Made by a program: the position numbers and the translations under genes
Sequence record: OQ957557.1
Direction: 5' to 3' (one strand)
DNA length: 45,779 nucleotides
Origin: Enterobacter phage ST22
Shown: positions 4,583 through 38,750 of the stretch, piece after piece
Numbering within the stretch: position 1 is the first letter of the stretch
Layout: every line of letters begins with the position of its first letter
Notes under the pieces: model-generated
The model's database searches: none
What the model was told of the DNA's origin: nothing
What the model saw: only the letters and a program-made list of their open reading frames with translations

Positions 4583-4621
4583 TTATGAATCCTCTTGAGT
4601 GGTTGTCGTTTCAATGAGGTC

Positions 4622-4654
4622 ATTATGGGGCCACCAGCCCAGAGCGTCAACCAT
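4622..4654 (-). promoter_or_regulatory. Sigma70-like promoter, GGTTGACG family: -35 TTGACG (RC of 4645-4650), 17-nt spacer, -10 CATAAT (RC of 4622-4627). It drives the leftward cluster.
   Basis: TAATAAATGGTTGACGC-N17-CATAAT with an AT-rich UP-like region. The AACGACAACC leader motif lies about 12 nt downstream of the -10. Confidence 0.55.
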
Positions 4655-4746
4655 TTATTAGTTTTTATGTACAAATATTGACCATTATTAGCGTAAGTCC
4701 ATGACGCATAACGATTTATTGAATTATTAGATTTCAGAAGTATAAA

Positions 4747-4773
4747 GGGGGTATGGGGGGAGGGGGAGAGGGG
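4747..4773 (+). repeat. Canonical G-quadruplex-forming motif GGGGGTATGGGGGGAGGGGGAGAGGG, with an extra GGGG at 4783-4786.
   Basis: Four G-tracts of >=3 with loops of 1-4 nt, read directly on the plus strand. Confidence 0.5.
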
Positions 4774-4785
4774 TGCCCCTAAGGG

Positions 4786-4860
4786 GTAGTAGTAGTAAGT
4801 AAGTAAGTAAGTATATATATATATAATAAATAAATAATATATATAATTACTATATAGAAT
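4786..4860. repeat. Composite microsatellite tract: (GTA)3-4, (GTAA)4, (TA)7, (AATA)3, (TA)4-5.
   Basis: tagtagtagtaagtaagtaagtaagtatatatatatataataaataaataatatatataattactatatag. Confidence 0.65.
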
Positions 4861-4869
4861 AGACACTTA

Positions 4870-4970
4870 GGGCAACCGTCAACCGTTTCCAAACCTAATA
4901 ATCTAATAACAGTTTGACACTATCCACCAGCTCAGCGCAAAATGGCAACCTGTTTTGACAACCAACCGGT
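4870..4970. promoter_or_regulatory. Iteron-like CAACC repeats (GCAACC GTCAACC .. CCAAACC .. GGCAACC .. GACAACCAACC) with TTGACA -35-like elements. Candidate origin of replication and early rightward promoter region, immediately upstream of the primase.
   Basis: Five to six CAACC copies within ~100 bp, next to an AT-rich low-complexity tract and the prim-pol gene. Confidence 0.35.
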
Positions 4971-4979
4971 AACGCACCG

Positions 4980-7673
4980 ATGAAAGAGAATCGTTTAACG
5001 CCTCACTGGAGGCTTTACAAGGATGCAGGCTTTTCCATCATCCCAATCATCCCCATGGAGCAAAACGGGAGGGGGGATTGGGTTTGTACGTGTAACAGCG
5101 CCCATTGTCAGGCGGCTGGTAAGCACCCAACGATCAGACGTTGGGAAAACGTTGTGCATACGCATAGCGATGCGGCAACGCACCGCCTGATTAATTCCAA
5201 ATGCCAGAGCTTTGGGGTTTCCGCTGATGGGTGGCTGATTGTGGACGTGGACCCGCGCAATGGTGGCGGGGTAGGTCTGGAAAAGCTGGAGGAGGCACTG
5301 GATTGCTATCTTGAGGATATCGCCGGATTGACCGTTGAAACGGGAGGCGGTGGCCTGCATTACTATTTCAAAGCCCCTGAGGGCGTGAAGATGGTGACGG
5401 GCAAAAAGGAGTTTCCTGGGGTGGACTTTGTGCATGGCCTGCATTACGTGGTTGGGGCCGGTAGCGCGCATAAATCAGGTGGCACTTACACCATCAAAAA
5501 GGGTAGCCCGGACAAGATTGATTATCCCCCTAAAGAGCTGGTGGACCTGATTGAGAGGCAGCCCTGGGTGGCTGGCACTGGTGGGGATGGTGAAGCTGAG
5601 CCGGAGCTGGTGGAGATGGCCCTTGATGCTATTCCAAATGATGATGTGGACTATGATGAATGGCTGCGCATTGGGATGGCTCTGCGTCACTGGGATGATG
5701 ATGCCGGTTATGCCCTGTTTGTTAAGTGGTCGGAGCAGTCCAGCAAGTTTGATCCGGCTGACCTTGATCGCCGCTGGGCATCATTTGGGGATGTGGGCGC
5801 GGTTAACGTGGGCACCATCTTTCAGCGGGCCATGCTGAATGGCTGGGAGCGTCCACGCGATGCAGTTTGTGGTGAGATTGATGAGCAGGGCAAGATCATC
5901 CCGTTCCGCGCTACTGAGGCCCAACTGGATGCCATGCGTAAGATGCTGAGCACTCCACGGGGTAGCAAGGTAATCGTGGTGCATGAGGATGAGGTGATTG
6001 AGTCAGACGCCGCACCCCAGCGCCAGGCTGCGCCTGCCGCCGAAAACCCACAACCCCAAAACCAAAAACCCATGGGCACCGCAGCAAGCTGCCGCACCGG
6101 TGGCAAACCCTTCTGGCAGAAAAGCGATGGCACCACCCCAACCGGCGAGATGCGCCACGCGGGTGTGCTGCCGGTGGCCCCTCCTGCCCCTACCATCAAG
6201 GCCGCGCCGAAAGCCTCAGCTGCGGCTATGCAGTACAAGATCAAGCTCCCTGGCTGGATTGGAACAATTTACGATCACATGGCCCGCACCGCGTGGAGCG
6301 TGCAGCCTGGTGCCATCGCCGCCGCAGCCATTCAGGCCGTTGCCGTCGCTGGGCGCGGGGTGAAGGGCTACAACCGCGCTAACACGAGCCTCATCACGAT
6401 GGTGATCGCCGCGTCAGCGTCCGGCAAAGAGCACCCTCAGCGCGTTTTCCACACCCTGATGCAGAGCGTTGGAATTGACGTTCACGCGGAGATGCGCAGT
6501 GACAAGGATTTAGTTTACGGGCTGGTGGATGGCGACGGTGCAGCGTGCTACCTGGTGGATGAGGCCCATACGCTCTTTGGGGCTGCCGGTGCCGGTGATG
6601 CCGTCAAGCGCGTGGACAAGTCCAGCCTCCAGCTGGGCGGGATGCTGCTGAAAGTGGGCACCGCCACCAAATTGCCACTGCCGCGTAACTGGATGGCTGA
6701 CATTGAGGCGCGTGAGGGCGCTGAGATTGAGAAGCTGCGCAAAAAACAGGCCCAGATTGAGGAGGGCAAAGGCGTATGGAAGCAGCGCCCCACTGAGCAG
6801 GCTAACCTGGAATATGCGCGCCTTGAGGCTCTGATCGGTTTCCGTGAGAAGCGCCTCAAAAACCTCAAAGCCAACGGGCTGGATAACGTCAAATTCAACA
6901 TGCTGTGTAGCTCCACACCTGCCATGTTCTCTGAATACATTGACGAAACGGCGATTAATAACGGGCTGGCGGGCCGTGCGCTGATCTTTGACTGCGGGCA
7001 CAAGGCAGATTATCCATGCTTTGAAGCGCCGCCACTGGATAGCCAGCGCCGCGCTGAGATTGATGATTATATTGCGCGCCTGCGGGAAGCCGGTGAGCTG
7101 GGGCTGGAGGTTGAGGCCAGCAGCGGGGCGGTGGCGTTATTCCGTCAGTTCCATGACAAGATGAGTCAGCCAGCTTATGCAGAAGATCCGCAAACGGGGC
7201 CGGTAAACCGCCGCAGCTCTGAGCGCGTTTCAAGCCTTGCCAGCATCCTGGCGATGGGAAACCAGACACATGAGGGCGTTTTCCTGATCACTGAGGAGAT
7301 CGCGCAAACCGCCATTGATCTGGTGGAGATGCACCTGGCAACGTGCCGCTTTATGCTTAGTCAGACCATGGCAGAGGATAGCCAGATTGACAGCAAGGCC
7401 GCCATCCAGCAGCGGGTGCTGCATATCATGCAGAAAACCACCAGCGATGAGCCTATGGCTTACAGCGTGCTGCGTCAGCGTTTCCTGGCTGCCAAAAAGT
7501 GGAAAACACTTATCAAACGGTTGACGGATGAGGGGCCAAAGTCCGATAATGACCGTCTGGGCCAGGAGATCATTGCCATGCTGCGGCTGGGCTTGATTGA
7601 TGGCGCGGTGAATAAAGCGTGCTGGATCACGCCGAAAGGCAGAGAGAGCGGCGGCTATGGTAAATCTTTATAA
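4980..7673 (+). CDS. DNA primase (bifunctional primase-polymerase N-terminus + PriCT-like region + Pro/Ala-rich linker + large C-terminal DUF3987-like domain).
   Basis: N-terminus ...LIVDVDPRNGGG...GGGGLHYYFK..VDFVHG (prim-pol). 897 aa, with a low-complexity linker at about aa 330-400. Confidence 0.75.
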   Translation: MKENRLTPHWRLYKDAGFSIIPIIPMEQNGRGDWVCTCNSAHCQAAGKHPTIRRWENVVHTHSDAATHRLINSKCQSFGVSADGWLIVDVDPRNGGGVGLEKLEEALDCYLEDIAGLTVETGGGGLHYYFKAPEGVKMVTGKKEFPGVDFVHGLHYVVGAGSAHKSGGTYTIKKGSPDKIDYPPKELVDLIERQPWVAGTGGDGEAEPELVEMALDAIPNDDVDYDEWLRIGMALRHWDDDAGYALFVKWSEQSSKFDPADLDRRWASFGDVGAVNVGTIFQRAMLNGWERPRDAVCGEIDEQGKIIPFRATEAQLDAMRKMLSTPRGSKVIVVHEDEVIESDAAPQRQAAPAAENPQPQNQKPMGTAASCRTGGKPFWQKSDGTTPTGEMRHAGVLPVAPPAPTIKAAPKASAAAMQYKIKLPGWIGTIYDHMARTAWSVQPGAIAAAAIQAVAVAGRGVKGYNRANTSLITMVIAASASGKEHPQRVFHTLMQSVGIDVHAEMRSDKDLVYGLVDGDGAACYLVDEAHTLFGAAGAGDAVKRVDKSSLQLGGMLLKVGTATKLPLPRNWMADIEAREGAEIEKLRKKQAQIEEGKGVWKQRPTEQANLEYARLEALIGFREKRLKNLKANGLDNVKFNMLCSSTPAMFSEYIDETAINNGLAGRALIFDCGHKADYPCFEAPPLDSQRRAEIDDYIARLREAGELGLEVEASSGAVALFRQFHDKMSQPAYAEDPQTGPVNRRSSERVSSLASILAMGNQTHEGVFLITEEIAQTAIDLVEMHLATCRFMLSQTMAEDSQIDSKAAIQQRVLHIMQKTTSDEPMAYSVLRQRFLAAKKWKTLIKRLTDEGPKSDNDRLGQEIIAMLRLGLIDGAVNKACWITPKGRESGGYGKSL

Positions 7674-8061
7674 CTGGGGCCGCGTGGCCCCGTCATGGGA
7701 ACCGCGTAAGCCAGCGGTTGCCCGTGACCCAAATGACCCAATGCCGGACGGGCTGACGGTCACGGCTGAAATCAGGTACGTCCGTTTCCAGAAGGATGGC
7801 GAGAAGATTGATCGCGTGGTTGTGTTCCGCATAACTGCCGGTGAATTTAACAACTGTGAAGCCAATTACCGCATCAAGTGGAACAGGCCGGACAAGCTCA
7901 GGCCGCTCACGGATGTGGTCATGCCGGATAGCAGGGAGCGGGGCCGCATGGTGGCCTCCCGTGATCCAAAGGTGTGGAGTGAGATGTTAGCGGGGCGCTG
8001 CGCCACAATCGTGATTGGCGTCTATATGGGCCACAATTACATTAAAGAAATCAAGAGGTAA
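7657..8061 (+). CDS. Hypothetical protein (134 aa).
   Basis: ORF overlapping the primase stop. Confidence 0.45.
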   Translation: MVNLYNWGRVAPSWEPRKPAVARDPNDPMPDGLTVTAEIRYVRFQKDGEKIDRVVVFRITAGEFNNCEANYRIKWNRPDKLRPLTDVVMPDSRERGRMVASRDPKVWSEMLAGRCATIVIGVYMGHNYIKEIKR

Positions 8062-8066
8062 GCATT

Positions 8067-8912
8067 ATGTTAGATGGAATGAGTAAACCAGGATTAACTG
8101 CGCCGGTTATCGTGATCGCCGGTCCCCCAGGGGCTGGTAAGTCAACGCTGGGCGCATTGTTCCCCATGCCGCTGTTTATTCAAGCTGAGGAGCTGAGTAG
8201 CGTTTTTGATGATTGGGCTGAGGAGGATAAGCCTCACACCTTGCCGATTCTGCCAGCGCATGATCTGGCGCTCAAAAAATCGCCGTATGACACGATCATG
8301 AAACAACTTGATCAGATTGGGCGGGCCAATACCGCAGAGCTGCGGCAGCAGGTGCGCACCCTCGTTATTGACTCCACCAGCGTGCTCAACGCTCTGCTGG
8401 AAGTGGAGATCGTGGAGAAGGACGGCTCTGACTCCATGGGTAACGCCTGCGGTGGTTTCCACAAGGCTTATGAGGTGGCTGCCGGTATGCACACCAAAAT
8501 CATTGAGCGGGCTAAGCGGGTATGCCGCAAGCACAACATGGCGCTCATTTTCCTGGGGCACACCATTGCCCGCAAGATGCGCAACCGCCCAGATGCTGAG
8601 GAGTACAGCGTATGGACTCTGGATATGGGTGAGAAAGCCGCGCAGGTTTACTACCGGCTGAGTGATGCCGTGCTATTCCTGACGGTGGAGGAGTTTGTGC
8701 GCGGTGGGGAAACCAGTAAGAAGGGGATCACCACCAAAAGCGGCAAAATCATCAGCACGGGCCAGCGCATCATTGTGACGTGCCCAGAAGGTAAGCAGGG
8801 ATTCAGCAATGCCAAAAACCGCATGAATCTGGACGCGCTTATCAAAGTGCCAGCTGACAGCAACCCATTGCTGGATCTGATCCCGTTTTACGTCGCCAAT
8901 CCTCTGGGGTGA
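8067..8912 (+). CDS. RecA-like/AAA_24 (Sak4-like) ATPase, putative recombination protein.
   Basis: Walker A VIVIAGPPGAGKST near the N-terminus. RBS AAGAGG upstream. Confidence 0.6.
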   Translation: MLDGMSKPGLTAPVIVIAGPPGAGKSTLGALFPMPLFIQAEELSSVFDDWAEEDKPHTLPILPAHDLALKKSPYDTIMKQLDQIGRANTAELRQQVRTLVIDSTSVLNALLEVEIVEKDGSDSMGNACGGFHKAYEVAAGMHTKIIERAKRVCRKHNMALIFLGHTIARKMRNRPDAEEYSVWTLDMGEKAAQVYYRLSDAVLFLTVEEFVRGGETSKKGITTKSGKIISTGQRIIVTCPEGKQGFSNAKNRMNLDALIKVPADSNPLLDLIPFYVANPLG

Positions 8913-8931
8913 AAATAATTTAAAATAATGG

Positions 8932-8968
8932 TTGACGGTTGAGGTGATTGGGGTAATAATCACCTCAA
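8932..8968 (+). promoter_or_regulatory. Sigma70-like promoter, GGTTGACG family: -35 TTGACG (8932-8937), 17-nt spacer, -10 AATAAT (8955-8960). It is overlapped by the 11-bp inverted repeat TTGAGGTGATT-N8-AATCACCTCAA (8939-8949/8958-8968).
   Basis: ATAATGGTTGACGG with an AT-rich upstream tract. The perfect inverted repeat covers the spacer/-10/TSS, which is an operator-like position. Confidence 0.55.
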
Positions 8969-9007
8969 CAAAACGACAACCGTTTAAACCAAAGAGGACT
9001 TATCAAG

Positions 9008-9976
9008 ATGGCAAACTCAAACGCAATCCGCACCGCTCTGAAAATCGTTTCCCGCATGATTGAACTGCGCAGCTCTGGCATCAAGCTGAAAGTTTATAAG
9101 GCTGAACTGCTCACCATGATGTGCGATCTGCAAAAGGATTTACCGGCAGAGGTTAATTGGTATCTCACCCAGGCTCACCGCTCACGCTCTGGGGAGACTT
9201 TTTTCCGTCGCCTGCGTGATGCAGAGGCGATCATTGTTTCCGCTCTGCGCCTCGCTGAGCAGATGGACGGCTACCACGCTGAGGCGCTGGAAATGGATGA
9301 AGATTTTGAATGCCGCGCCTACACCGTTGAGCACGCTCAGGAGCAGTTTAAAGAGCTTGATCCTGAGGTACGCGGCGAGGTTATCGCAGAGAAACATACT
9401 GAGGCGCTGGCTATTAACGCCGCTTTCGATAGCTCATTCCACCGCCGCGCTGCCAACTGGGGCGCGATGGATATGCTGAGCCGTGAGGTGGCGCTGGATA
9501 AAGCCCACCAGGAAGCGATGGAAATCAATAAGCGCTACCCGCTGAGCCAAAAGCAGAAAGATGCGATCCGCCAGGGTGGCATTGAAATTATGCACCGCGC
9601 CCACCCATTCCTGCTGGAGGAGGATCACGCCAAAGCGCTGCGCATGAATGCGGGTATTGATCGCGCCGTGGAGATCATCAAGCTGATGGCGCTGATGCCT
9701 GGGGCCGGTGATGCAGCAGGTGGCTGCCTTTACCGTGACGGCTTTGACGATATCAATGATCTCGTGGAGGTGGCGCTGCGCATCGTTGGGCCTTACGTCT
9801 ACATGAAGCCAGCAGGATGCGCGGCAGCTATGCGGTGTGATGGGGATCGCGTCTGGTGGTGGTCTGAACGCCGCAAAGTCTGGATTAAAGAGACTGATTG
9901 CACGCCGGAGACTTTCGCCAGCTTTCTGACCACCGGAAACGGATTTTATTGCAGCAACCCAGAAGTAAATCAGTAA
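9008..9976 (+). CDS. Hypothetical protein (322 aa).
   Basis: It is preceded by the leader AAAACGACAACCGTTTAAACCAAAGAGG. I recognise no domain. Confidence 0.6.
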   Translation: MANSNAIRTALKIVSRMIELRSSGIKLKVYKAELLTMMCDLQKDLPAEVNWYLTQAHRSRSGETFFRRLRDAEAIIVSALRLAEQMDGYHAEALEMDEDFECRAYTVEHAQEQFKELDPEVRGEVIAEKHTEALAINAAFDSSFHRRAANWGAMDMLSREVALDKAHQEAMEINKRYPLSQKQKDAIRQGGIEIMHRAHPFLLEEDHAKALRMNAGIDRAVEIIKLMALMPGAGDAAGGCLYRDGFDDINDLVEVALRIVGPYVYMKPAGCAAAMRCDGDRVWWWSERRKVWIKETDCTPETFASFLTTGNGFYCSNPEVNQ

Positions 9977-10045
9977 AAACAGATTGACCAATAACGCCAA
10001 CCGGTTTAAGGTTGGCACCTCAAAACAGTAACGTGGAGTTTTAAA

Positions 10046-10795
10046 ATGGGCTTTTGGACAAAATCAAATGGTGAGCAGGCTGGTGCTAACGCAGACGTTA
10101 ACCAGGACGGCGTTGAAACTGGCAAGGTAGTGCGCATCCCTGACCGCACCAAAGTGCTGGGCGTGCTGAAATCCATTGAGCTGCTGCCGGTCCGTGAGGG
10201 CAAAGAGGCAGATGCTCAGGACGGCGCAACGCTGGGCTATAAAGTCGAGTGGGAAGTGATTGAGAAGGGCGAATATCAGGGCAGCATCCAGCGCCAAGGC
10301 ATCAAGATTTTCGCCACCAAAGATCGCACCCGTGATGAAGCGCTGGAGCTGCTTTTCTTCATGGATAATCTGTTTGCCGATGGTCGTTTCCAGGCAACTG
10401 GTGAGGAGCCGGATCTGGCAGAAATGGAGGCCGCTTTCCAGAATAAACCGGCTATCCTGCTGATCCGTGGTATGGAATCAGAAAACGCGGAAACCGGCGA
10501 GAAAAGCTATTTCAACTGGGTTGGCGGTGTATTCCGTTACAAAGAGCCAGCTACCGCTCACAAAACCCCAGCTGACGCAGTGAACGCAGCCAAAGAGCAG
10601 ATCGCCAAAGGCAACGCAGCAGCAGCCGCCAACAAGCCTAAGCAGGAAACCGCCGCAGAGCGTAAGGCCCGCCTGATGCGTGAGCTGGCTGCTGAGGAGG
10701 AAGCTGAGCAGGCTGAGCAGGTAGAGGCAGCTAAGGCAGAGGATGGCGTTGCACATGGTGGCGCTGATATTGATCCTGAGGATCTGCCGTACTAA
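10046..10795 (+). CDS. Putative ssDNA-binding protein (acidic C-terminal tail ...DIDPEDLPY).
   Basis: The SSB-like acidic C-terminus, the position next to the Sak4-like ATPase and the leader with the AACGCCAACCGGTTTAA motif variant support the call. Confidence 0.4.
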   Translation: MGFWTKSNGEQAGANADVNQDGVETGKVVRIPDRTKVLGVLKSIELLPVREGKEADAQDGATLGYKVEWEVIEKGEYQGSIQRQGIKIFATKDRTRDEALELLFFMDNLFADGRFQATGEEPDLAEMEAAFQNKPAILLIRGMESENAETGEKSYFNWVGGVFRYKEPATAHKTPADAVNAAKEQIAKGNAAAAANKPKQETAAERKARLMRELAAEEEAEQAEQVEAAKAEDGVAHGGADIDPEDLPY

Positions 10796-10817
10796 TCCAG
10801 CCGGATTAATCCCATGA

Positions 10818-10840
10818 GGGCACTGCGGTGCCCTTTTTTA
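10818..10840 (+). terminator. Rho-independent terminator: GGGCAC-TGCG-GTGCCC followed by TTTTTT.
   Basis: Read directly. It lies downstream of the 10046..10795 gene. Confidence 0.7.
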
Positions 10841-10850
10841 CCACTAAAAT

Positions 10851-11198
10851 ATGAGTAAGCCCGTGATGAATGCTGCCACCGATCAGGCACCAGTGCCACG
10901 TAAGCCACGCAAGCGCCGCCGCAGCGCTGCACAAAAGGTTAAGGCCGCCAATAAGGCCAAAGCCAGATACATCAAAAACAACCCCACCAAACGCCGCGCC
11001 CACCGGCTGATTGAGAACGGCCTGAAAAACGGCTCAATCACCAAAGGCACGGAGTGCTGCGAGTGTCACACCCCAACCACTGAGAAGCGCGTGATCGCCC
11101 ATCATGATGATTATGCGCAGCCGCTGGCAATCCGCTGGATGTGTGATAAGTGTCACCGCGCCTGGCATAACATCCACGGCGAGGCGCTCAACCCATGA
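10851..11198 (+). CDS. Small basic protein with a Cys/His zinc-finger-like motif (CCECH..C..CH).
   Basis: N-terminus RKPRKRRRSAAQKVKAANKAKAR, then CCECH...MCDKCHRAWH. Confidence 0.5.
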   Translation: MSKPVMNAATDQAPVPRKPRKRRRSAAQKVKAANKAKARYIKNNPTKRRAHRLIENGLKNGSITKGTECCECHTPTTEKRVIAHHDDYAQPLAIRWMCDKCHRAWHNIHGEALNP

Positions 11199-11746
11199 TC
11201 TACACCAGCAAAACAACGCCGATAATCAGCGCGTGCAGCCGCCTGGTGTGGGCTGCCAGCCACCAGCCGCAGGTGATGGAGATCGTGGAGCGCCTGCACC
11301 TCATTGACGACGCGGTAAAGCGGTCCGTAATGGCTGACGCGCCGCCGCTGCGTTTTAAGGATCTGGCTATCCGGTCCGGCTACATTGACGGCATCATCAA
11401 CGCCGCAGGCAATAAGCTGCTTTACGTGGCGGTTAGCTATGACGATGAGCCAACGGATGCGCACCTGCTGCACGTCCAGCGCCAGCTGGCTGACCTTAAC
11501 GCCCGCAAGGAAACCCACCTGCACATGCAGGAGGCTTTTATGCTCATCGTGAATAAAAGCGCTGGGCGCTTCCGTGAGCGCGTTATGCCTTACCGTGATG
11601 AGTTTGCCATTGACTTTCAATTTATCGCTGATGAGCCGCTCCCAGGCCCTGAGGTGGTCAATTCTGAGTGTAACCTTTGCCCGCTGCGTTATGACTGCGA
11701 AACGCTGGCGGCGAGTGATGCTAAAGGGGTGCATCGTGATTTTTAA
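11195..11746 (+). CDS. Hypothetical protein (183 aa).
   Basis: ORF overlapping its neighbours by 4 and 10 nt. Confidence 0.5.
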   Translation: MIYTSKTTPIISACSRLVWAASHQPQVMEIVERLHLIDDAVKRSVMADAPPLRFKDLAIRSGYIDGIINAAGNKLLYVAVSYDDEPTDAHLLHVQRQLADLNARKETHLHMQEAFMLIVNKSAGRFRERVMPYRDEFAIDFQFIADEPLPGPEVVNSECNLCPLRYDCETLAASDAKGVHRDF

Positions 11747-13637
11747 ACTGAGGGGCTACCAGCAGGATGCAGTTGACGCTGTTATCGCCCAGATCCGGCG
11801 CTCAGTCGCTTCCGCCGTCATTGTCCTGCCTACTGGGGCGGGCAAGTCTCTGGTGGTGGCTGAGCTAGCTAAACGCATTCACCATGACAGCAAGGGCAAG
11901 CGCGTGCTCTGCCTTGCTCCAACCGCTGAGCTGGTGACGCAGAACCGCAAAAAATTCCTGGCTTTTGGCTATGATGCCAGCCTGTTTTCAGCATCAGCCG
12001 GTGGCAAGTCAACCCGCCATCCGGTGATTTTCGGCAGCCCAATGACCGTGGCTAACAGCGTTGAGCGTTTTTATGATGATGTGGCTGCCATCATCGTTGA
12101 TGAATGCCAGGGCATCACCAGCACCCTGCTGAAAATCATTGATTCCATCCGTGAACATAATCCACGCGTGCGCCTGATTGGCATGACTGCCACGCCATAC
12201 CGCACCGGCACCGGCTACATCTACAAAGATCATTACATCAACGGGCCAACGGATGAAACCAACGCCCGTGATCCATATTTTGACCGCGTGGTGTATGAGC
12301 TGCCTGCGCAGTATCTGATTGACAACAGTTTCCTTAACCCGCCTCTGGTAGGCGAGCGGATCACGCTGGGTTACTCCACCAGCGGGCTGGAAATGCGCGG
12401 TGATAAATTCACCAATGACAGCGTGAAAGAGGCGTTTGAGGGTGAGGCTCGCCTGACCTATCAGATTGTCCAGGATATCGTTGAGCGGGTGGAAACTGGC
12501 GGTTATCGCAGCGTGATGATTTTTGCCGCCACCCGTGACCATGCAGAGGAAGTGTGCAGCTATTTGCCAGCCGGTGAGTGGGTTGCGGTGTACGGTGACA
12601 CGCCGAAAGCGCAGCGTGATATTAACCTGAATGCTTTCATTGCCAACAAATATAAATACATCGTCAACCAAAACATATTGACAACCGGTTTCGATGCGCC
12701 TATGGTTGACGTTATCGGAGTGATGCGCGCCACTGAGTCACCTGGCCTTTACCAGCAAATCATTGGACGCGGCACCCGCCTCTGCGATGTTCCATACCCA
12801 GACGGCAGGATGAAAGATCACTTTCTGGTGCTGGAATATGCTGAGAATATCAGCCGCCACTTTAAGGAAACCGGCGATCTATTTGTGCCGGAGATTAAAG
12901 CCCGTAAGCCGCCAACCGGCACGCCCATGGAGGTGCCTTGCCCAGATTGTGGGTTTGTGAATACGTTCACGGCGCGGCCTAACGAGGAGAATCTCAAGAT
13001 TGATGAGCATGGCTATTTCCTGGACTTGTCCGGCAGTCAGCTGATGATTGAGATCAAGGAGGGGCGCAAGGGTGAGGAGATTTACAAAGAGGTGCCAATG
13101 CCTGCCCACTTCGGCAGACGCTGCACCAACATGCTGGAGCAGGGGCCACTGCGTGAGATTAAGCGCTGCGGCTATATGTGGAGCTTTAAGAGCTGCCCTG
13201 AGTGTGGCACTCAAAACGATATAGCCGCACGCAAATGCACGGCCTGCAAATGCGAGATTGTCAACCCTAATGACAAACTCAAAGAGGAGGCCGAAATGCT
13301 GGAGAAAGATCCGCACGCGGTTAAAACGGCAAACGTCACTGGGATGCTGTGGCAACGGTCATGGTCACGCAAAGGCGATCAGATGCTCATCCTGACCTGG
13401 CTGACTGATCACAAGCTCAAGATGTTCCGCAAGATTGAGCAGCCATTTATCCCAGACCACGAAAAGGCGTTTCCGCGCCAGAAGTGGGAGCGCATGAGTA
13501 AAGATCTGTTTGGGCACGTCAAGGATATTGAGGACGCGCTCAGTTTGCAGAAAGCGGCCCGCCTACCGGCGCGCATTGTTTTCCAGCGGCCTAAGGGCCA
13601 GAAGTACCCAATCATTAAACGTCTGGAGTTTGAATAA
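11737..13637 (+). CDS. SF2 (DEAD/DEAH-like) helicase with C-terminal zinc ribbons. Start inferred at the GTG after an AAAGGGG RBS.
   Basis: RGYQQDAV...LPTGAGKS (motif I), DECQ (motif II), and C-terminal CPDCG...CPECG...CTACKC. Confidence 0.8.
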
Positions 13638-14089
13638 TGATTTTTCCTGATGGTGTGCCGGTCTACGGCGATAAAAATTTTCGTGACAAGAAATGCCCTA
13701 AAGAGGATGCGGAGCTGATCACGTTTTTCAATCAGCTACGCCGCCGCAGTCCGGCGCTGGCAGCCGTGGCGCTGCATATCAAAAACGAGGGCCAGCGCAC
13801 CGGTGAGCAGGCCATCAGAGAGCGCGCAAAGGGCGCGCTTAAAACTGGTGCCACCGATATTGTGATCACTGCCGCAGGCTCATTCATCTGTGAGCTTAAG
13901 CGCAAGGATCACACCCTCAGCAGGCTGGAAGGGGCGCAAAAGGAGCAGCTGCTGGCTGGGATGGAGGTTGGCGCGTTTGCCTGCATCGCGCTGGGTTGGG
14001 AGGCCGCATTTGAGGCTCTGGAGGCGTTTATTGACACGCTACCCAAAGCCGTGCGCGCCCGTATTCAATACACTGTGGAGCTGATTTAA
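13637..14089 (+). CDS. VRR-NUC domain nuclease (PD-(D/E)XK).
   Basis: ...TGATDIVITAAGSFICELKRKD... (D..E.K), downstream of the helicase. Confidence 0.6.
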   Translation: MIFPDGVPVYGDKNFRDKKCPKEDAELITFFNQLRRRSPALAAVALHIKNEGQRTGEQAIRERAKGALKTGATDIVITAAGSFICELKRKDHTLSRLEGAQKEQLLAGMEVGAFACIALGWEAAFEALEAFIDTLPKAVRARIQYTVELI

Positions 14090-14658
14090 TGACCACGTTA
14101 CGAATTGATAAGCCTCTGCTGGAGGCCATGCACCTGGTGAAAGGCCAGCCCAATAAAGAATGGCGCGGCTGGATGCTGGGGATCTGCTTTGCCGCAGACG
14201 GGCAGGTTTTTGCCACTAATGGGCATGTGCTGGCTGCCTCGCCTGGCTATCCGGTTGAGGATAAGCCTGAGGGGTTTGCCGGTGTCTGCCTGGAAATCCC
14301 CAAAACGCCCGCCAACCTGAAAAAGTATGAGCAGGTGGTTATCTCTCTGGAGGAGGGGCTGGCCCGCTACCTTGATGAGCAGGGTAATGAGCTGGGAGTG
14401 CAGGCGGTTAAGCGCGTGGACATTCCCAGCCTACCGAAAGTAGGGGCTGTTATTGAGCGCCCACCAGCAGAGCCTCAGAATGAATTTGTTTTCAATCCGG
14501 GCTACCTCGCCATGATTGAAAAAATCGCCCTCCTCTTTGAGAAAAAGCTGGAGAAAAAGATCTATGTGCGTATACGCGGCACGGATAACTGCGCGTTTAT
14601 TGCTTACCCAACCTGCGGCGTTGAAATCCGTTTCATGGTCGCCCCGATTAAGGTTTAA
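14089..14658 (+). CDS. Hypothetical protein (189 aa).
   Basis: ORF with an ATGA start/stop overlap with the VRR-NUC gene. Confidence 0.5.
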   Translation: MTTLRIDKPLLEAMHLVKGQPNKEWRGWMLGICFAADGQVFATNGHVLAASPGYPVEDKPEGFAGVCLEIPKTPANLKKYEQVVISLEEGLARYLDEQGNELGVQAVKRVDIPSLPKVGAVIERPPAEPQNEFVFNPGYLAMIEKIALLFEKKLEKKIYVRIRGTDNCAFIAYPTCGVEIRFMVAPIKV

Positions 14659-14663
14659 AAAAA

Positions 14664-15205
14664 TGCCGATCCCACTCAAACATAAGCATGAAGATCCCAC
14701 CCAGGAATACCTGCACGGGATGTTTAACTATGACCCAGAAACGGGCATTTTCACGTTCAAAGATGCAAAGAGCCGCAACGCATTCAGCCAGGGCAAGAAA
14801 GCCCGCGCTCATCGCATTGGTAAGCCGTGGTGTGGCACTGAGGTGCTCAGCGGGCGCATCTTCATAAACATTGGGAAGCGTCAGCGGCAGGCTAACCGGC
14901 TGGCGTGGATCTACGTCCATGGAAGCATCCCAGAGGGGATGGAGGTTGGGTATATCACTCCGCTGGACCCGCTAAACCCAGAGGCCAGCGGAAACTACGC
15001 CAACCGGCTGAGCAACCTGCGGCTCTGCACCCGTGAGGAGTTTAACACTGAGACTCAGCGCCGGATTGAGAAGCGCGCCAGAGAGGCCGGTAAGAAGGTG
15101 GGCCGCACGCCTAAGCCAATGGCTCAGCTGGAGCGGGAGCGCTCGCAGGCGGGCTATCAGGGCGGCTCTGCGTTGTTCAAAATGATGATGGGCCAGAGAG
15201 TTTAG
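14664..15205 (+). CDS. HNH_3-like (homing-endonuclease-like) protein, degenerate.
   Basis: ...RLAWIYVHGSIPEGMEVGYITPLDPLNPEASGNYANRLSNLRLCTREE resembles the HNH_3 pattern, but the catalytic His-Asp-Gly-Asn is not conserved. Confidence 0.4.
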
Positions 15206-15208
15206 GCC

Positions 15209-15243
15209 AAAAAAAACCCGCGTCCAAAGTGGCGCGGGGTTTA
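15209..15243. terminator. Hairpin CCCGCG-N10-CGCGGG flanked by an A8 run and GTTT. Weak bidirectional terminator.
   Basis: Read directly. The T-tract is short on the plus strand. Confidence 0.4.
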
Positions 15244-15306
15244 ACCAATCCAAACTCAAAAAGTAAGCGGATTAACTTTAGGCAATATTTGATTAAGGAT
15301 CAAACC

Positions 15307-15486
15307 ATGTTTGTTGAGAAATATATTGTTTGGCTGGCTGCGTGCCAATTCCTGCGCCACATCCTGGACGTATGCCGCAGTAAGCCATATGTGGAGCCGG
15401 TAAACAAATGGACCCGATTAGGGCACGCCATTGCCATGGTTATCTGGCTGCTGGCAACAATCCACCTCTGGGGCAAACTGCCATGA
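15307..15486 (+). CDS. Small hydrophobic protein (~59 aa).
   Basis: AAGGA RBS, ATG at 15307, two hydrophobic segments. ATGA overlap with the next gene. Confidence 0.35.
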   Translation: MFVEKYIVWLAACQFLRHILDVCRSKPYVEPVNKWTRLGHAIAMVIWLLATIHLWGKLP

Positions 15487-16052
15487 GTGGAAACTTTAAC
15501 CCAGGGAAAGAGAGTAAAACTGATGCAGACGAAAAGAATTTTTGGGCCACCCAATGGCATTGTTTCCATGATGGTGAGAGGCTTTACGGTCGCCGGTTTG
15601 AGCATGACGTGGCAGCCATGCGGCACACCGCCAAAGTGCCAGGGGCTTATTACGGGCCAGATCACGAGCTTGAGCAGTACCGTGACGCGCTCACGTTAGG
15701 CTGGCCTGATCATTGGTGGTGTAACCCACCGTTTGACCGTAAGCAGGATTTCATCATCAAGGCCCGTGAGCAGCAGGCTATGGGCCGCCCTGGCATGATG
15801 TTGATCCCGTATGAGCCGTGCAGCGGTTGGTGGCAGGATTTGCTGGCTGAGGACGTGATTATCTATGAGCCACGGGGCCGCTATAACTTCTATGCGCCGG
15901 ATGGGGAAACGCCAAAGAGCGGCGTTAACTTCCCGATTGCCTTTGTGGCTTTTCCGACGATGAAGATCGGCCCATCGGTGCGCGTGCAATTCAGGAAATC
16001 ACCGGCCCCGCGCCTGCCACGAAAAAAGAAAGAAAAAAAGGTTGGCGCTTAA
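15483..16052 (+). CDS. dam: Phage-type DNA N6-adenine methyltransferase (Dam family, NPPF motif).
   Basis: ...HWWCNPPFDRKQDFIIKA... (motif IV NPPF). Small ~190-aa phage Dam architecture. Confidence 0.7.
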   Translation: MSGNFNPGKESKTDADEKNFWATQWHCFHDGERLYGRRFEHDVAAMRHTAKVPGAYYGPDHELEQYRDALTLGWPDHWWCNPPFDRKQDFIIKAREQQAMGRPGMMLIPYEPCSGWWQDLLAEDVIIYEPRGRYNFYAPDGETPKSGVNFPIAFVAFPTMKIGPSVRVQFRKSPAPRLPRKKKEKKVGA

Positions 16053-16123
16053 ACGTCATTCGTTTTATAGTTCGTTTCACGGGGCCAGCAGGTGGCCCCA
16101 CTAACCAAACAAAAGGTAAGCAA

Positions 16124-16642
16124 ATGAGCATTTTGTCCATGGTTGTAACAGCTATCCGTAACGCGAAAAGCCGCAAAATGAAACGCACCATTGCAAAGGT
16201 AGGCGCTAACCTGGTGGCGGCAGCCGCAGCTCCTGACACAGGCGCTCTTGTCGAAACTAACGACGCGCCGCACCCGCTGCACATGCTGATCGAAAAAGAG
16301 GGTATTGGCCCACGCGGTAAAACCGGCAAAATCACCCACCGCCTGCGCAACGGGATCGACTTTTACAGCTGCTCAGACCTGGCGGCTAAACAGGTTGATC
16401 GCCTGATTGATGATCTGCGCGATGTGTACGGCAAAACCAGCACGCTGAGCCTGTTTGAGCGCGGCACCGGCAATGCACCTTACGAAATGGTGATGGTGGT
16501 CAAGAAAAATGATCGCACCGTGGCAGAGGTGTGCCTGGTCGCCGGTTACTCTGAGCAGAGCTACGTGCGCCGCAGCCAGAAGATTTTTAACGCTCTGGGA
16601 AGCACCAGCCGCGCATGGGCTATCAACGGCCTGCAAAAATGA
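16124..16642 (+). CDS. Hypothetical protein (172 aa).
   Basis: ORF preceded by a GGGGCCA-N5-TGGCCCC hairpin at 16081-16099. Confidence 0.5.
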   Translation: MSILSMVVTAIRNAKSRKMKRTIAKVGANLVAAAAAPDTGALVETNDAPHPLHMLIEKEGIGPRGKTGKITHRLRNGIDFYSCSDLAAKQVDRLIDDLRDVYGKTSTLSLFERGTGNAPYEMVMVVKKNDRTVAEVCLVAGYSEQSYVRRSQKIFNALGSTSRAWAINGLQK

Positions 16643-16779
16643 GAATGACCGTTATCACCCTGCTTTGTGTAGCTCTGGCAAGCTGCACGGCTCAGCAGGT
16701 GCAGACGGTTGCCACGGTGTGCGATATCGCCGCCAAAGTGCTGGGGTGCGTTGCTGGCACAATGCCACCAGCCAAATAA
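16639..16779 (+). CDS. Small lipoprotein (46 aa), entericidin/Cor-like size class.
   Basis: MRMTVITLLCVALASC has the lipobox LASC. ATGA overlap with the upstream gene. It is below the 60-aa ORF-track cutoff. Confidence 0.45.
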   Translation: MRMTVITLLCVALASCTAQQVQTVATVCDIAAKVLGCVAGTMPPAK

Positions 16780-16783
16780 TTAA

Positions 16784-16808
16784 CCGGCCCACGGATGGGC
16801 CAATTTTT
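16784..16808 (+). terminator. GGCCCA-CGGA-TGGGCC hairpin followed by AATTTTTGA.
   Basis: Read directly, after the small lipoprotein gene. Confidence 0.45.
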
Positions 16809-16821
16809 GAGGATTGACCAG

Positions 16822-17343
16822 ATGAGTTTTGTAAAGGTTGAGCTGCGCACCAGTGTGGCCAACAAAGCCCTGAAATTGATGAGCCGCCGCTATAGCACCA
16901 ATAACCAGCGGGAAATGCAGATCGGCCTGCTGGGTGAATATGCGGTTGCCCAGTGGCTTGAGAGTGAGGGGAAAACTGTTAATCATTGCTCAGTGGCAGA
17001 AATGCGTTTTGCTGAGCGTGAGGGCAGCGCTGACCTGAGCTATCTGAGCCGCTACGGTGAGCAGGTCAACGTGCAGGTAAAGGCCACTGAGTTTGATACG
17101 TGCTGGATCACGGCTGGCTGCCTTAAAGGCTATCTTTGCCGCAACGTTCATGAGATCTATTTTGTGGACGTGTTTATCAACGGGCCGGTAACAACCGCCT
17201 TTATTTATCACCAGACAACGCCGCAGCGCATCAAAGCGCAGTGGGTGGAAGTGGACAAAGGCAAACGCCTGATCCACCCGTCACTGCACCGTGCGCGCCG
17301 CCGTTATACTGGCATTAACCCAACTGAGGAAGTGAGCAAATGA
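16822..17343 (+). CDS. Putative PD-(D/E)XK-family nuclease-like protein (~174 aa).
   Basis: GLLGEYAVAQWL (helix with conserved E) ... GSADL ... VNVQVK (D..Q.K). A weak motif match only. Confidence 0.35.
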   Translation: MSFVKVELRTSVANKALKLMSRRYSTNNQREMQIGLLGEYAVAQWLESEGKTVNHCSVAEMRFAEREGSADLSYLSRYGEQVNVQVKATEFDTCWITAGCLKGYLCRNVHEIYFVDVFINGPVTTAFIYHQTTPQRIKAQWVEVDKGKRLIHPSLHRARRRYTGINPTEEVSK

Positions 17344-18068: not shown

Positions 18069-18108
18069 CCAATTCAGGGCAAGGATGCCCACCTAACGGA
18101 GAAATAGC

Positions 18109-30052: not shown

Positions 30053-30439
30053 TTACTGCCCCTCAATGCCGAAAGCCTGGATCAGCTCTGCCTTAATGCC
30101 GCGCACGCGGGTGCTGATAAACGTGCTCGTGATTGTGGTCCCTGGCTTGACGCGGTAAAGCCCTTGCACCCCACCAGGCGGCGTGAAAACGAAAGCCCGG
30201 ACAACATGCGCATGGAGGAAATTTTCAATATCTTTGGCGGTTTTCGGATCGCCCTTCCAGACCAGTGAGCAGGAAATGCGGCGCGTGTTGATGCCGTCAG
30301 TGGCTAACTGCTCATAGCCATCACCCAGAGCCACCTGCCGCACGCGGTGATTGTTGTCAACGTCGCCGCTGCCGTCCACCTGTAAAGGCCAAATAAAAAT
30401 ATCAATTGCCATGATTTGCTCCTGTTTGTGAGCGGTCAT
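30053..30439 (-). CDS. Minor tail protein M-like.
   Basis: Position and size, between the tape measure and the L-like gene. Confidence 0.65.
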   Translation of the reverse strand: MTAHKQEQIMAIDIFIWPLQVDGSGDVDNNHRVRQVALGDGYEQLATDGINTRRISCSLVWKGDPKTAKDIENFLHAHVVRAFVFTPPGGVQGLYRVKPGTTITSTFISTRVRGIKAELIQAFGIEGQ

Positions 30440-30457
30440 AATACGTCAACCGATCAG

Positions 30458-36729: not shown

Positions 36730-37821
36730 TTATTTCTTACCGAAAGTCACGATCAGACCGCCCAGGCCTTTGGCGACTTCCAGATCTGCACCGCTCAGGC
36801 GGCCCGTAGTGGCGGTGATGCCACGCGGATCGCTGATTTTCCAGCTGGAGGAGTCCAGCACTGTAGCGGTAGATGGAGATGCAGAGCCGGACTGATCCGC
36901 TTTCTGCTCAGTTGCAGGGGTTGGAGAAGTCGCTTTGTCACCGGTGCCCAGAACGCCAGATTTACCCACGAAAGTTTGACCTTTGAGAGCCAGGTTGAAA
37001 TGGTATTCACCCTGCATCAGATCATAAACGTTCTCCTCGCCCAGGATGGTTTGGCTATACATCTGGAGCGGAGAGGTGGAGATGGTGACGGCACCAGGGA
37101 CCAGACCCAGCACGCGGGAGCGCTGTTTAGGCGTGGTGTCAGCGGTTGGAGCATCCAGAGCTGCCACTGCGTCAGTAACCACAAAGCGACGGCCCAGACC
37201 ATCCTGGATCACGGTCACGGTTTCAAACTTAAACAGCTGCTGACCGTTCACGAAAGCATCCTCTGCCAGCAGGTCGTTATAGGTCGCGCCGGACATAACC
37301 CAGCAGCCCAGACGCGCAGCAGCATCACCCAGCTGACCAGACGCTTTGATCAGGTTGCGGATTTTAGGGATATCGCCACCGGTCTGAGCGGTGAAATCGT
37401 AATTCAGGCCCGCAGGAGTCGCAGCCATGAAAGCACCCAGACCAGTAGCCAGGTAATCCTCAATGATCTGGAGAGCAACCTGCTCACCCATCACCGCAGC
37501 CGCTTCTTTCGGGGTTTTGCCCAGGCGGTCCATCAGAGCTGGGGTGACTTTCAGCGGCAGGGTGCCGCCGTCAATCTTGATCGCACGCTCCAGCGCCTGC
37601 GCCAGCTCGGTAGGAGTGAGCTTGCCAGTGCCGTAGGCATTACGGCGGCGCACGAGCTGCTGAGCTGCCCAGAAGGTGCGCTCCAGCCAATCGCCCAGGA
37701 AGTCAGCCGCGCCCATCAGGATGGCACCATTGGAGGCGGTGTTAAACAGGTTGAGGTTAGCCTCAATCACTTTCGTGGTTGCCGTCGCTACCTGCTGATC
37801 AAAAACAGTAATTTGTGGCAT
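36730..37821 (-). CDS. Major capsid protein (HK97-fold-like, 363 aa) with a Ser/Thr-rich C-terminal region.
   Basis: Position after the scaffold gene. Strong AGGAG RBS. Confidence 0.65.
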   Translation of the reverse strand: MPQITVFDQQVATATTKVIEANLNLFNTASNGAILMGAADFLGDWLERTFWAAQQLVRRRNAYGTGKLTPTELAQALERAIKIDGGTLPLKVTPALMDRLGKTPKEAAAVMGEQVALQIIEDYLATGLGAFMAATPAGLNYDFTAQTGGDIPKIRNLIKASGQLGDAAARLGCWVMSGATYNDLLAEDAFVNGQQLFKFETVTVIQDGLGRRFVVTDAVAALDAPTADTTPKQRSRVLGLVPGAVTISTSPLQMYSQTILGEENVYDLMQGEYHFNLALKGQTFVGKSGVLGTGDKATSPTPATEQKADQSGSASPSTATVLDSSSWKISDPRGITATTGRLSGADLEVAKGLGGLIVTFGKK

Positions 37822-37832
37822 GTGGTGCTCCT

Positions 37833-37872
37833 AAAATAAACAAATGGGGTGGGGGTTTAAGCCACCCCACCA
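37833..37872 (-). terminator. G/C-rich hairpin (GGTGGGG/CCCCACC) followed by ATTTGTTTATTTT on the minus strand, between scaffold and capsid genes.
   Basis: Read directly. It would act as an attenuator within the head operon. Confidence 0.4.
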
Positions 37873-37878
37873 ATGGCC

Positions 37879-38565
37879 TTATTCGTTACCCAGCGCGTCA
37901 ATGGCCTGCATTGCAATGCTGCGGTTGTCCAGCTGCTGGCCTGGCTTGTGCTCAATCGGCTGTACGTCCGTTTTGCTGGTGGCTCCAGATGGCCCCTGAG
38001 CTTTGGTCGTTACCAGGAACGGCGCAAAGGTCTTGTTACCGGCAAACTCTTTTTCCAGATCATCCGTGGTGAGCGCTGACGGCTTGCCATCCAGACCCAG
38101 CACGCGGGTTTTAAACTCACCGTTTTCACCCTCTTCCAGGGTAATGCGGCTCTTAACGTGGTGCTCCAGAACTCCAGCATTAGCGCCAAACAATTTAGCA
38201 GCCAGCTGCTGCGCTACGTTACCCACCATCAGCTCATTGAGCTTAGCGCCATAGCGGGCTTTATCCGCTTCATGCGCCTGCTGGGCTGCGGCTAGCTTTT
38301 CGCCCCATGATTTATCAATGGCGTCCAGGTTTCCGGCAAGGCGATCAGCTTTATCCTTCTCAGCTTTCGCGTCCTCCTCTGCCTTACGGCGGGTTTCGTC
38401 GCCCTGCTTTTTCTCATCCAGGAGCTTATTGAGCTTTTGCTCCATCGCATCAAAGTCCGGCATCCCTTCAATCTTAATCTGGTAGCCATCACCTTTGGCG
38501 GTGTACTGCGCTTTCTGCTCATCAGTCAGAGCGTCAAACTCTGCTTTCGTAATCTTAAATTTCAT
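37879..38565 (-). CDS. Scaffolding protein (coiled-coil, Lys/Glu/Ala-rich).
   Basis: Composition and position immediately upstream of the MCP. Confidence 0.6.
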   Translation of the reverse strand: MKFKITKAEFDALTDEQKAQYTAKGDGYQIKIEGMPDFDAMEQKLNKLLDEKKQGDETRRKAEEDAKAEKDKADRLAGNLDAIDKSWGEKLAAAQQAHEADKARYGAKLNELMVGNVAQQLAAKLFGANAGVLEHHVKSRITLEEGENGEFKTRVLGLDGKPSALTTDDLEKEFAGNKTFAPFLVTTKAQGPSGATSKTDVQPIEHKPGQQLDNRSIAMQAIDALGNE

Positions 38566-38662
38566 GGGGTTTTCCTCTGGTAGTCACCTAACGCCGCAAG
38601 CGCTAAATGGTCGCCCCGCAAGGGCTAACGGGCTAATCATACAGCCGGTGGACGGCAACCAC
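38566..38662 (-). promoter_or_regulatory. Conserved structured late leader upstream of the scaffold gene, a near-duplicate of the terS leader (AGCCCG..CTTGCGGG..CTTGCGG..ACCAGAGGAAAACCCCATG), with a -10-like TATGAT and -35-like TTGCCG.
   Basis: I aligned the two leaders at 1384-1460 and 38566-38640 by hand. Confidence 0.4.
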
Positions 38663-38683
38663 AAATTTTTTTGCAATGCGGTG

Positions 38684-38712
38684 TTGACACGTCAACCGGT
38701 TGCCGGTAGATT
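38684..38712 (+). promoter_or_regulatory. Sigma70-like promoter of the plus-strand island: -35 TTGACA (38684-38689), 17-nt spacer, -10 TAGATT. The inverted repeat GTTGAC-AC-GTCAAC overlaps the -35. It is followed by the leader GTAACGACAACCATTTGAGAGG.
   Basis: Read directly. Confidence 0.5.
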
Positions 38713-38750
38713 TAGCGATGTAACGACAACCATTTGAGAGGTTTATTAAG

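Follow-up and report, generated by a model that had tools for sequence, protein, structure and literature searches.

Morons are known from lambdoid phages such as HK97 and HK022. A second kind of unit, the promoter-early stem-loop (PeSL), has been described in T4-type myoviruses (Arbiol et al. 2010, PMC2839356; Comeau et al. 2014, PMC4122927). Each PeSL combines a promoter, a stem-loop, a ribosome binding site (RBS) and an ATG; such units are repeated within a genome and lie at the borders of insertions, deletions and replacements (PMC4122927, PMC2839356). They are further characterized by recombination between copies, giving mini-circles, and by measured promoter and attenuator activity (PMC2839356), and they reside in the hyperplastic regions of T4-type myovirus genomes. 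Phage nt-1 is one of those with described PeSLs (PMC4122927), and in RB49 the PeSL crossovers were mapped between the -10 box and the ATG (PMC2839356). Here, we analyze a short leader word, AACGACAACC, that follows promoter-like sites of Enterobacter phage ST22 (sequence record OQ957557.1; the whole stretch of 45,779 nucleotides is referred to as the window). With moderate confidence, we read this word as the cis-acting leader of a portable early-promoter cassette, PeSL-like or moron-type.

Such a cassette would consist of an AT-rich tract, near-consensus -35 and -10 boxes for the host σ70, a stem-loop beside or across the promoter, a short, unstructured, A/C-rich leader, AGAGG and a start codon. 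Within it, the word would fix the productive start and the early transcript for the host RNA polymerase, and the structure-free, nearly U-free 5' untranslated region would let ribosomes load on any open reading frame (ORF) placed behind it. In combination with the other cassette parts, the word would also supply short homology for the exchange of accessory ORFs. None of these roles would need a dedicated phage regulator.

Four promoter-leader cassettes in the window and its relatives

The window holds four exact copies of AACGACAACC, one at each of the promoters P4650, P8932, P19833 and P38684. The units to which they belong are as follows.

4601-4610, minus strand: leader word AACGACAACC of P4650, exact, 11 nt past the -10 box CATAAT (4622-4627) and 5 nt before AGAGG (4591-4595)
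4574-4675, minus strand: cassette P4650, with AT-rich tract, GGTTGACG (4645-4652), -10 box, leader, RBS and ATG (4582)
4340-4359, minus strand: terminator-like hairpin with T-run, closing the 71-aa ORF unit behind P4650 and holding a Chi octamer
8972-8981, plus strand: leader word AACGACAACC of P8932, exact, 11 nt past the -10 box AATAAT (8955-8960) and 11 nt before AGAGG (8993-8997)
8908-9010, plus strand: cassette P8932, upstream of the ORF at 9008-9976
19874-19883, plus strand: leader word AACGACAACC of P19833, exact, 11 nt past the -10 box TATGCT (19857-19862)
19815-19904, plus strand: cassette P19833, with the -35 box inside a terminator-like hairpin (19826-19852), T-run, -10 box, TTACCACATCGAAACGA, leader, RBS and ATG (19902)
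20616-20634, plus strand: terminator-like hairpin with T-run, closing the two-ORF unit behind P19833
38722-38731, plus strand: leader word AACGACAACC of P38684, exact, 9 nt past the -10 box TAGATT (38707-38712)
38663-38753, plus strand: cassette P38684, heading the rightward block 38751-40838
40840-40861, no strand assigned: terminator-like hairpin at the end of the P38684 block, where it meets convergent leftward genes

All four words are intergenic and in the sense orientation relative to the next gene, which for P4650 is the 71-aa ORF at 4367-4582 on the minus strand. They lie 9-11 nt past the -10 box of promoter-like sites of the form TTGAC(A/G)-17/18-TAnnnT; the individual box pairs (TTGACG-17-AATAAT, TTGACG-17-CATAAT, TTGACA-18-TATGCT and TTGACA-17-TAGATT) each match the consensus at 10 of 12 positions and are σ70-like. 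AT-rich tracts, read directly, are found upstream of the promoters (aaaataatttaaaataat, acataaaaactaataaat, aaaaaataatttcactaaa and caaatttttttgcaat). On the other side, 5-11 nt separate the end of the word from AGAGG and 6-10 nt separate AGAGG from the ATG, which amounts to 17-26 nt from word end to ATG. Taking the predicted start to be about 7 nt past the -10 box, the word spans approximately +3/+6 to +15. It contains no T, and the predicted leader transcripts are unstructured, folding no better, or worse, than shuffles (z of +0.2 to +2.5). An Rfam search of the leaders returned no family at gathering score.

The word is also overrepresented. When up to one mismatch is allowed, AACGACAACC has 10 matches in the window compared with 1.32 expected, a count reached in 0 of 100 shuffles, and AACGACAA occurs in 5 copies compared with 0.69 expected. 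A weight matrix built from 18 clade sites, including the four of the window, scores these four at 19.7-21.6 bits, values that are partly circular because the same sites helped build the matrix; the next match scores 14.9 bits. At a threshold of 9 bits or more, the matrix finds 23 matches, compared with 4.3 in Markov shuffles.

The first-pass annotation had described a leader common to the first genes of five operons, lying 8-12 nt past a -10 box and overlapping the RBS. The placement in the initial transcribed region is supported by the promoter geometry and by homology to the promoter cassettes of other phages (see below). The common leader and its spacing hold for four sites, which combine exact word and promoter at 9-11 nt; at the fifth (9993), a variant word sits outside the leader position, in a promoter spacer. 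The RBS itself is left free, since the word ends upstream of AGAGG, and "first genes of five operons" is a loose description, given that the P4650 unit consists of a single ORF and its terminator-like hairpin.

Uncultured relatives of the phage were reached via the primase-polymerase, a tail protein and a head protein, and are labeled here by the identity of their primase to that of the window (89%, 62%, 42%, 40% and 35%). Conservation in related phages, whose loss the first-pass annotation had named as evidence against the motif, was found: in the 89% and 62% relatives, the orthologous promoters retain the word, with variants ACCGACAACC and AACGGCAACC, and AGCGACAACC is an extra site. Two promoters of the 40% relative have the word as well, and the distance to the -10 box is 8-11 nt at all of these sites. 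In the 62% and 40% relatives, the word at the 19833 promoter is retained in full (100%), while the remaining cassette is 88% and 73% identical, respectively, and the flanks fall to approximately 50-60%. The P38684 word is likewise 100% kept in the 62% relative.

The same comparisons reveal where the cassettes end. At P8932, identity between the window and the 89% relative is 98% across promoter, leader and RBS and drops to 58% directly after the ATG; the proteins encoded behind this promoter share their C-terminal parts only. At P4650, the promoter, leader and terminator-like hairpin are kept in the 62% relative around an unrelated intervening ORF (71 aa versus 61 aa), with the cassette 82% identical and the flanks 51-56%. 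Behind P19833, the ORFs are replaced or barely similar between relatives, and the neighboring replication genes are 45-96% identical. In most comparisons, the cassettes are 73-98% identical and the flanks 51-63%. Judged from these alignments, the cassettes are islands of identity, and their 3' edge is a breakpoint for the replacement of downstream ORFs between relatives.

A start block shared with other phages

Similarity to the cassettes extends beyond the clade. A 91-nt query around 19833 matches the KVP40-like vibriophages VH7D, ValKK3 and nt-1, as well as Certrevirus phages. Specifically, positions 19826-19894 are 83% identical to VH7D and ValKK3 over 66-69 nt and 81.5% identical to nt-1 (E values of 3e-6 to 1e-5), in an alignment that spans the G/C stem containing the -35 box, the T-run, the -10 box and the leader CATCGAAACGACAAC. 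These vibriophage elements correspond to the PeSL type known from T4-type phages such as nt-1. Within 50 kb of VH7D sequence, ATCGAAACGA occurs 9 times, always on a single strand and each time starting about 6-7 nt past the -10 box of a promoter-like site. Searches of IMG/VR with loose DNA patterns (TTGAC-N34-40-AACGACAACC, ACCWCANNNRAAACGACAACC and CATCGAAACGACAAC) gave matches that were nearly all due to chance, the exceptions being VH7D itself and one contig (L182) with promoter-like context.

A shorter query of 46 nt, restricted to the stretch between the -10 box and the RBS inclusive, gave matches in 356 phage records; taken one by one, the majority of these matches are weak (E about 1-10). 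Among the matches, (T)TACCACATCGAAACGA(CA) has exact counterparts of 17-18 nt in the T7-like PE3-1 and the T1-like U136B, with TACCACATCGAAACGACA identical at 18 of 18 positions in Kayfunavirus PE3-1 and TTACCACATCGAAACGA at 17 of 17 in Tlsvirus U136B. Near-exact copies occur in the T7-like SH3, the Webervirus TSK1 (T1-like), ICP1 and the Certrevirus KaOmega (rV5-like). The match lies directly behind the -10 box in all six cases inspected. Convergence on the hexamer consensus cannot explain matches of the TTACCACATCGAAACGA type, because this part is not constrained by the σ70 hexamers. When the sequence strings were looked up in the literature, nothing but unrelated primer sequences came up, and the searchable literature yielded no mention of TTACCACATCGAAACGA. 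Altogether, TTACCACATCGAAACGA, which lies within 19855-19878 of the window and comprises the discriminator and the initial 10 bases of the transcript, recurs in exact or near-exact form at host-type promoter-like sites in five or more unrelated groups of phages (T7-like, T1-like, ICP1, KVP40-like and rV5-like).

Several observations weigh against the portable-cassette reading. The start sites are predictions from promoter geometry, and 10-12 identical bases are short for homologous recombination. Part of the similarity to other phages, namely the hexamers and the G/C stem with its T-run, could be convergent. In addition, the part best kept in the clade is AAACGACAACC (+5 to +15) rather than the cross-family block: TACCACATCG has decayed in the 62% and 40% relatives, in which the 10-mer is 100% kept. 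A generic "good leader" needs no exact 10-mer, and the word may therefore have a clade-specific reader. Finally, in the 40%, 42% and 35% relatives, GACAACC is found in promoter spacers and as a -35 box; it occurs in either orientation and also forms inverted pairs. There, GACAACC or its complement GGTTGTC abuts TATTAT or TATCAT in spacers and also overlaps the start. This placement in the distant relatives looks like that of a DNA site.

These points could be accommodated by two overlapping layers, a possibility that we hold only tentatively: a pan-phage start block, TTACCACATCGAAACGA, and a clade-specific AACGACAACC read by a phage protein. The former would then be an initial-transcribed "code" for the host RNA polymerase or the 5' end of the mRNA, and the latter an asymmetric operator or 5' RNA tag that would time or insulate the accessory-gene cassettes.

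Other readings of the word and neighboring features

In the first-pass annotation, the motif was proposed to be an operator at +1 to +20, a RegA-like site of translational repression or a signal for RNA processing or stability. These proposals gained no support in our scan of about 47 window ORFs against Pfam and PHROGs, which detected no repressor, RegA-like or other RNA-binding protein. The leaders are predicted to be unstructured and match no Rfam family, and the word ends before the RBS. More broadly, the scan found no repressor, integrase, RegA, RegB or Q-type antiterminator family, and only weak helix-turn-helix (HTH) hints; PDB sequence searches with three conserved or candidate small proteins yielded nothing usable.

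Nevertheless, an asymmetric DNA operator deserves consideration, even if we judge it rather unlikely. A clade-specific phage protein would recognize (A)ACGACAACC on double-stranded DNA at +5 to +15 and block promoter escape or otherwise time the host-type promoters, and the spacer, -35 and inverted-pair placements in the distant relatives would be further sites for the same protein. The exact 10-mer indeed stays at orthologous promoters where the surrounding promoter bases change, and GACAACC/GGTTGTC occurs 17 times in the 40% relative, compared with about 5.6 expected at equal base frequencies, with about 10 of these copies at promoter-like sites in both orientations. In two relatives, inverted pairs CGACAACC-N16-GGTTGTCG bracket a TTGAAC/TTGCCA-17-TATTAT promoter-like site, and upstream of the primase gene the window has CGTCAACC in the very place where the 62% relative has the inverted GGTTGTCG. 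Two weak candidate binders are encoded at 39705-40004 (a NUMOD-like HTH at 24.7 bits in Pfam, below the 27-bit cutoff; phrog_3855) and at 39338-39733 (a weak phrog_323 match, with a Myb-like HTH and a zinc ribbon by eye). However, no regulator family rose above threshold in the scanned ORFs, and the PDB searches gave no sequence match. The inverted pairs are equally readable as PeSL-type stem-loops. Moreover, half of the word (AAACGA) is common to promoters of unrelated Vibrio and Klebsiella phages; a regulator shared between these and the window clade is unlikely. The mycobacteriophage L5 gp71 "stoperators" and the P1 C1 operators are scattered asymmetric sites in temperate phages with an identified repressor. 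The window resembles them in having a short non-palindromic word in several intergenic copies, mostly in one orientation relative to transcription, and differs from them in that no repressor or integrase was detected in its scanned ORFs and its word holds a fixed position behind the -10 box.

The word might instead matter through pairing, as the 3' arm of a promoter-spanning stem-loop in which CGACAACC pairs with GGTTGACG in read-through RNA or single-stranded DNA. Such a hairpin would attenuate or process upstream transcripts, while transcripts from the cassette's own promoter, lacking the 5' arm, would stay open. At P8932, an inverted repeat spans the promoter (8930-8981; outer arms GGTTGACG/CGACAACC, inner arms GTTGAGGTGATT/AATCACCTCAAC), and the predicted read-through fold reaches -28.5 kcal/mol (z of -7.1) with the -35 octamer GGTTGACG and the leader octamer CGACAACC at the stem base. 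The 62% relative keeps this hairpin (z of -2.5) despite different inner-stem bases, with compensatory changes (GGTGTGAGG/CTTCACACC). P4650 has the same outer pairing in a weak fold (z of -1.75), and the GG ahead of TTGAC, in itself unusual, corresponds to the CC that follows CAA. The first-pass annotation had likened the reverse complement of the leader to the promoter element GGTTGACG, so that one protein might recognize both; the resemblance is read more simply as that of two arms of an imperfect inverted repeat. At the other two promoters (P19833, z of -3.8; P38684, z of -0.34, with only a 14-bp palindrome), however, the -35 box is paired in the terminator-like hairpin or the adjacent palindrome and the word is still exact, so pairing is not the whole reason for its conservation. 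The outer stem is also without covariation and keeps an A-A mismatch, and no U-run follows the P8932 hairpin. We consider this explanation distinctly unlikely.

Least probable of all, in our estimate, is that the word tags the 5' end of early mRNAs as single-stranded RNA, to be recognized by an RNA-binding protein or a nuclease of phage or host in RegA-like control, stability or processing. This would agree with the word always lying on the sense strand in the window and the 62% relative, at a constant spacing from the predicted 5' end, and being single-stranded in the predicted folds. On the other hand, given the distances to the RBS and the AUG, the word leaves the initiation region uncovered; in the 40% relative, the next start codon is about 465 nt away from one copy, and further copies are antisense or in untranscribed spacers; and the searches described above gave no RNA-binding protein family and no Rfam family. 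In T4, RegA sites span the AUG or RBS, and cleavage by RegB takes place within GGAG. A short sequence common to the 5' regions of several early mRNAs is what the window shares with these T4 systems; it differs in that the word lies upstream of the RBS and no RegA or RegB homologue was detected in the scanned ORFs.

Further candidates were rejected. A lambda-type nut/put antitermination RNA is not compatible with leaders that form no better-than-shuffle hairpin and match no Rfam family. A σ70-dependent promoter-proximal pause or Q-type site was dropped since such sites have a -10-like hexamer (A at position 2, T at position 6) in the initial transcribed region and the word contains no T, and no Q-type antiterminator family was found in the scanned ORFs. 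The remaining ideas were judged by sequence inspection or general knowledge: the A-R-N motif of Hfq is in the wrong register; boxA, nut and the RfaH ops element do not resemble the word; an antisense promoter with GGTTGTCG as its -35 box has no -10 box at the right distance; pairing with 16S rRNA amounts to only a partial match to helix 34; and a leader peptide has no ATG. Known E. coli transcription-factor sites and Dam or other methylation sites were also dropped.

Two further sites carry divergent forms of the word.

9984-10016, plus strand: fifth site, promoter-like TTGACC (9984)-17-TAAGGT (10007), upstream of the SSB-like gene 10046-10795
4953-4963, plus strand: degenerate copy TTTTGACAACC, behind the primase-polymerase promoter-like site (TTGACA 4914, CAAAAT 4938)

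The variant word of the fifth site, AACGCCAACC (9993-10002), lies in the spacer of the 9984 promoter-like site, 43 nt before the ATG, and forms the 5' arm of a GCCAACC/GGTTGGC hairpin (GCCAACCggtttaaGGTTGGC, 9996-10016; z of -2.6). Because of this position in the spacer and inside a hairpin, the fifth site is not a leader. The "TTTAAGG" once taken for its RBS is the hairpin loop plus the -10 box, and the real RBS is GGAG at 10035. The site is the same in the relatives L143 and L144, and the orthologous spacers of more distant relatives carry GCCAACC or GGTTGTCA. The degenerate copy TTTTGACAACC starts 10 nt past the -10 box of the primase-polymerase promoter-like site, with its GACAACC after 13 nt.

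The genome surrounding these sites is that of a tailed phage (45.8 kb, 55% G+C) and appears to be complete and circularly permuted; judged from synteny with L143, the large terminase gene appears to be split across the ends (45026-45779 and 1 to about 620). A leftward block from 4866 to 1, continuing from 45779 to 40864, contains small ORFs and packaging and head genes. The rightward replication block (4980-23471) encodes a primase-polymerase, an AAA_24 protein, the SSB-like protein, a helicase, a RusA-like protein, Dam, Nmad5 and lysis genes, and is followed by a leftward head-tail block (38565-23521) and a small rightward block (38751-40838). Between the last two, a perfect palindrome, GTTGACACGTCAAC (38683-38696), provides back-to-back -35-like hexamers for the divergent P38684 and leftward head-tail promoter regions. 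The tail genes of the window and its relatives are lambda-like, and a T4-type core is absent. Genes of DNA-modification type lie at 15408-19357 and 21440-22210 (Dam, Nmad5, a YfbR-like HD hydrolase, DUF6378 and a second methyltransferase).

Compared by megablast with a phage collection and with E. coli genomes, window pieces of 7.7-23 kb gave no DNA-level match, and the best matches of the portal protein are about 50% identical. A primase-based scan of IMG/VR returned no relative, and a search for tRNA and tmRNA found nothing. Two further protein searches were of little help: the Dhillonvirus-like phages reached via a 322-aa protein are without AACGACAACC, and L157, reached via the head-morphogenesis protein, has another genome layout and no promoter-associated copies of the word.

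Some features near the cassettes are recorded here in their own right. Between the divergent promoters upstream of the primase-polymerase gene (4740-4880), a G-rich run is followed by (AGTA)n, (TA)n and an AT-rich block, which is likely a replication origin; L143, L145, L146 and L148 have a similar combination of purine-rich runs, (TA)n and short tandem repeats. The E. coli Chi octamer GCTGGTGG is present in 38 copies over both strands, compared with 12.6 expected from third-order Markov shuffles (maximum of 22 in 200), without orientation bias, and the relatives are Chi-rich too. Intergenic copies lie at 4343, 4631 and 4924: two at the conserved borders of the swapped 71-aa ORF slot (the terminator-like hairpin and the promoter spacer) and the third in the spacer of the primase promoter-like site. 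Behind P19833, the first ORF (19902-20249) appears by eye to encode two transmembrane helices and a short HTH-like tail; its weak counterpart in L146 looks alike by the same inspection, and no family match was obtained.

The octamers also occur elsewhere. Inside the helicase gene (12662-12711), CGTCAACC, TGACAACC and GGTTGACG are clustered within 50 nt and largely kept in L143 and L144, which could reflect an internal regulatory site or only coding constraint. At 30438-30451 on the minus strand, GGTTGACG adjoins a TATTAT -10 box upstream of a minor-tail gene, right after the tape-measure terminator-like hairpin; the octamer-beside-TATTAT layout (GGTTGTCG/GGTTGTCA) is also seen in the 40% and 42% relatives. 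Finally, a gene at 1830-2795 on the minus strand encodes a 321-aa protein with collagen triple-helix repeats and a weak YadA-anchor-like C-terminus. It has its own GGTTGACG promoter-like site (2852-2882), is absent or diverged in the relatives and may be accessory (moron-like).

Comparison with described systems

The T7 A1 early promoter is a strong promoter for the host RNA polymerase, with a discriminator and start of TAC..CC ATCGA... followed by the G-rich GAGGGACACGG. This start region is like the TACCAC ATCGAAACGA of the window and of the Kayfunavirus matches, whereas the A1 transcript does not contain AACGACAACC. The shared start block may prove more useful than the finding from which this analysis departed: either regulatory cassettes cross phage families, or host RNA polymerase and ribosomes impose a common optimum. 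Either outcome would aid the prediction of phage early promoters and the design of strong portable expression cassettes.

Compared with morons, the units at 4340-4675 (the 71-aa ORF) and 19815-20634 (two ORFs) have the same composition of promoter, one or more ORFs and a terminator-like hairpin, sit between conserved genes and differ in their ORFs between relatives. P8932 and P38684 fit this description in part only, as they head longer operons. In addition, the promoter and leader of the window form a repeated, conserved module common to several units, which is a difference from morons.

Compared with PeSLs, the window cassettes have the AT-rich tract, the σ70-like boxes at a spacing of about 17 nt and the 3' RBS and ATG. 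The stem-loop, which in PeSLs is placed between the promoter boxes, over them or immediately upstream, is clear at P8932 and P19833 and weak at P4650, and the P38684 fold is no better than shuffles. Like PeSLs, the cassettes lie at borders of insertions, deletions and replacements between close relatives, and they are directly similar in sequence to elements of the KVP40-like vibriophages VH7D and nt-1. They differ in their host genome, a 45.8-kb siphovirus-like phage rather than a T4-type myovirus, and in their number, with only four full copies plus variants. Since the tail genes are lambda-like and no T4-type core is present, we classify the element as PeSL-like and not as a strict T4-type PeSL. 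As such, PeSL-type cassettes, so far from T4-type myoviruses, are now placed in a siphovirus-like clade, where the borders of accessory-gene swapping at the cassette edge are resolved to the base and where the CAACC extension of the leader, specific to this clade, is conserved better than the other parts.

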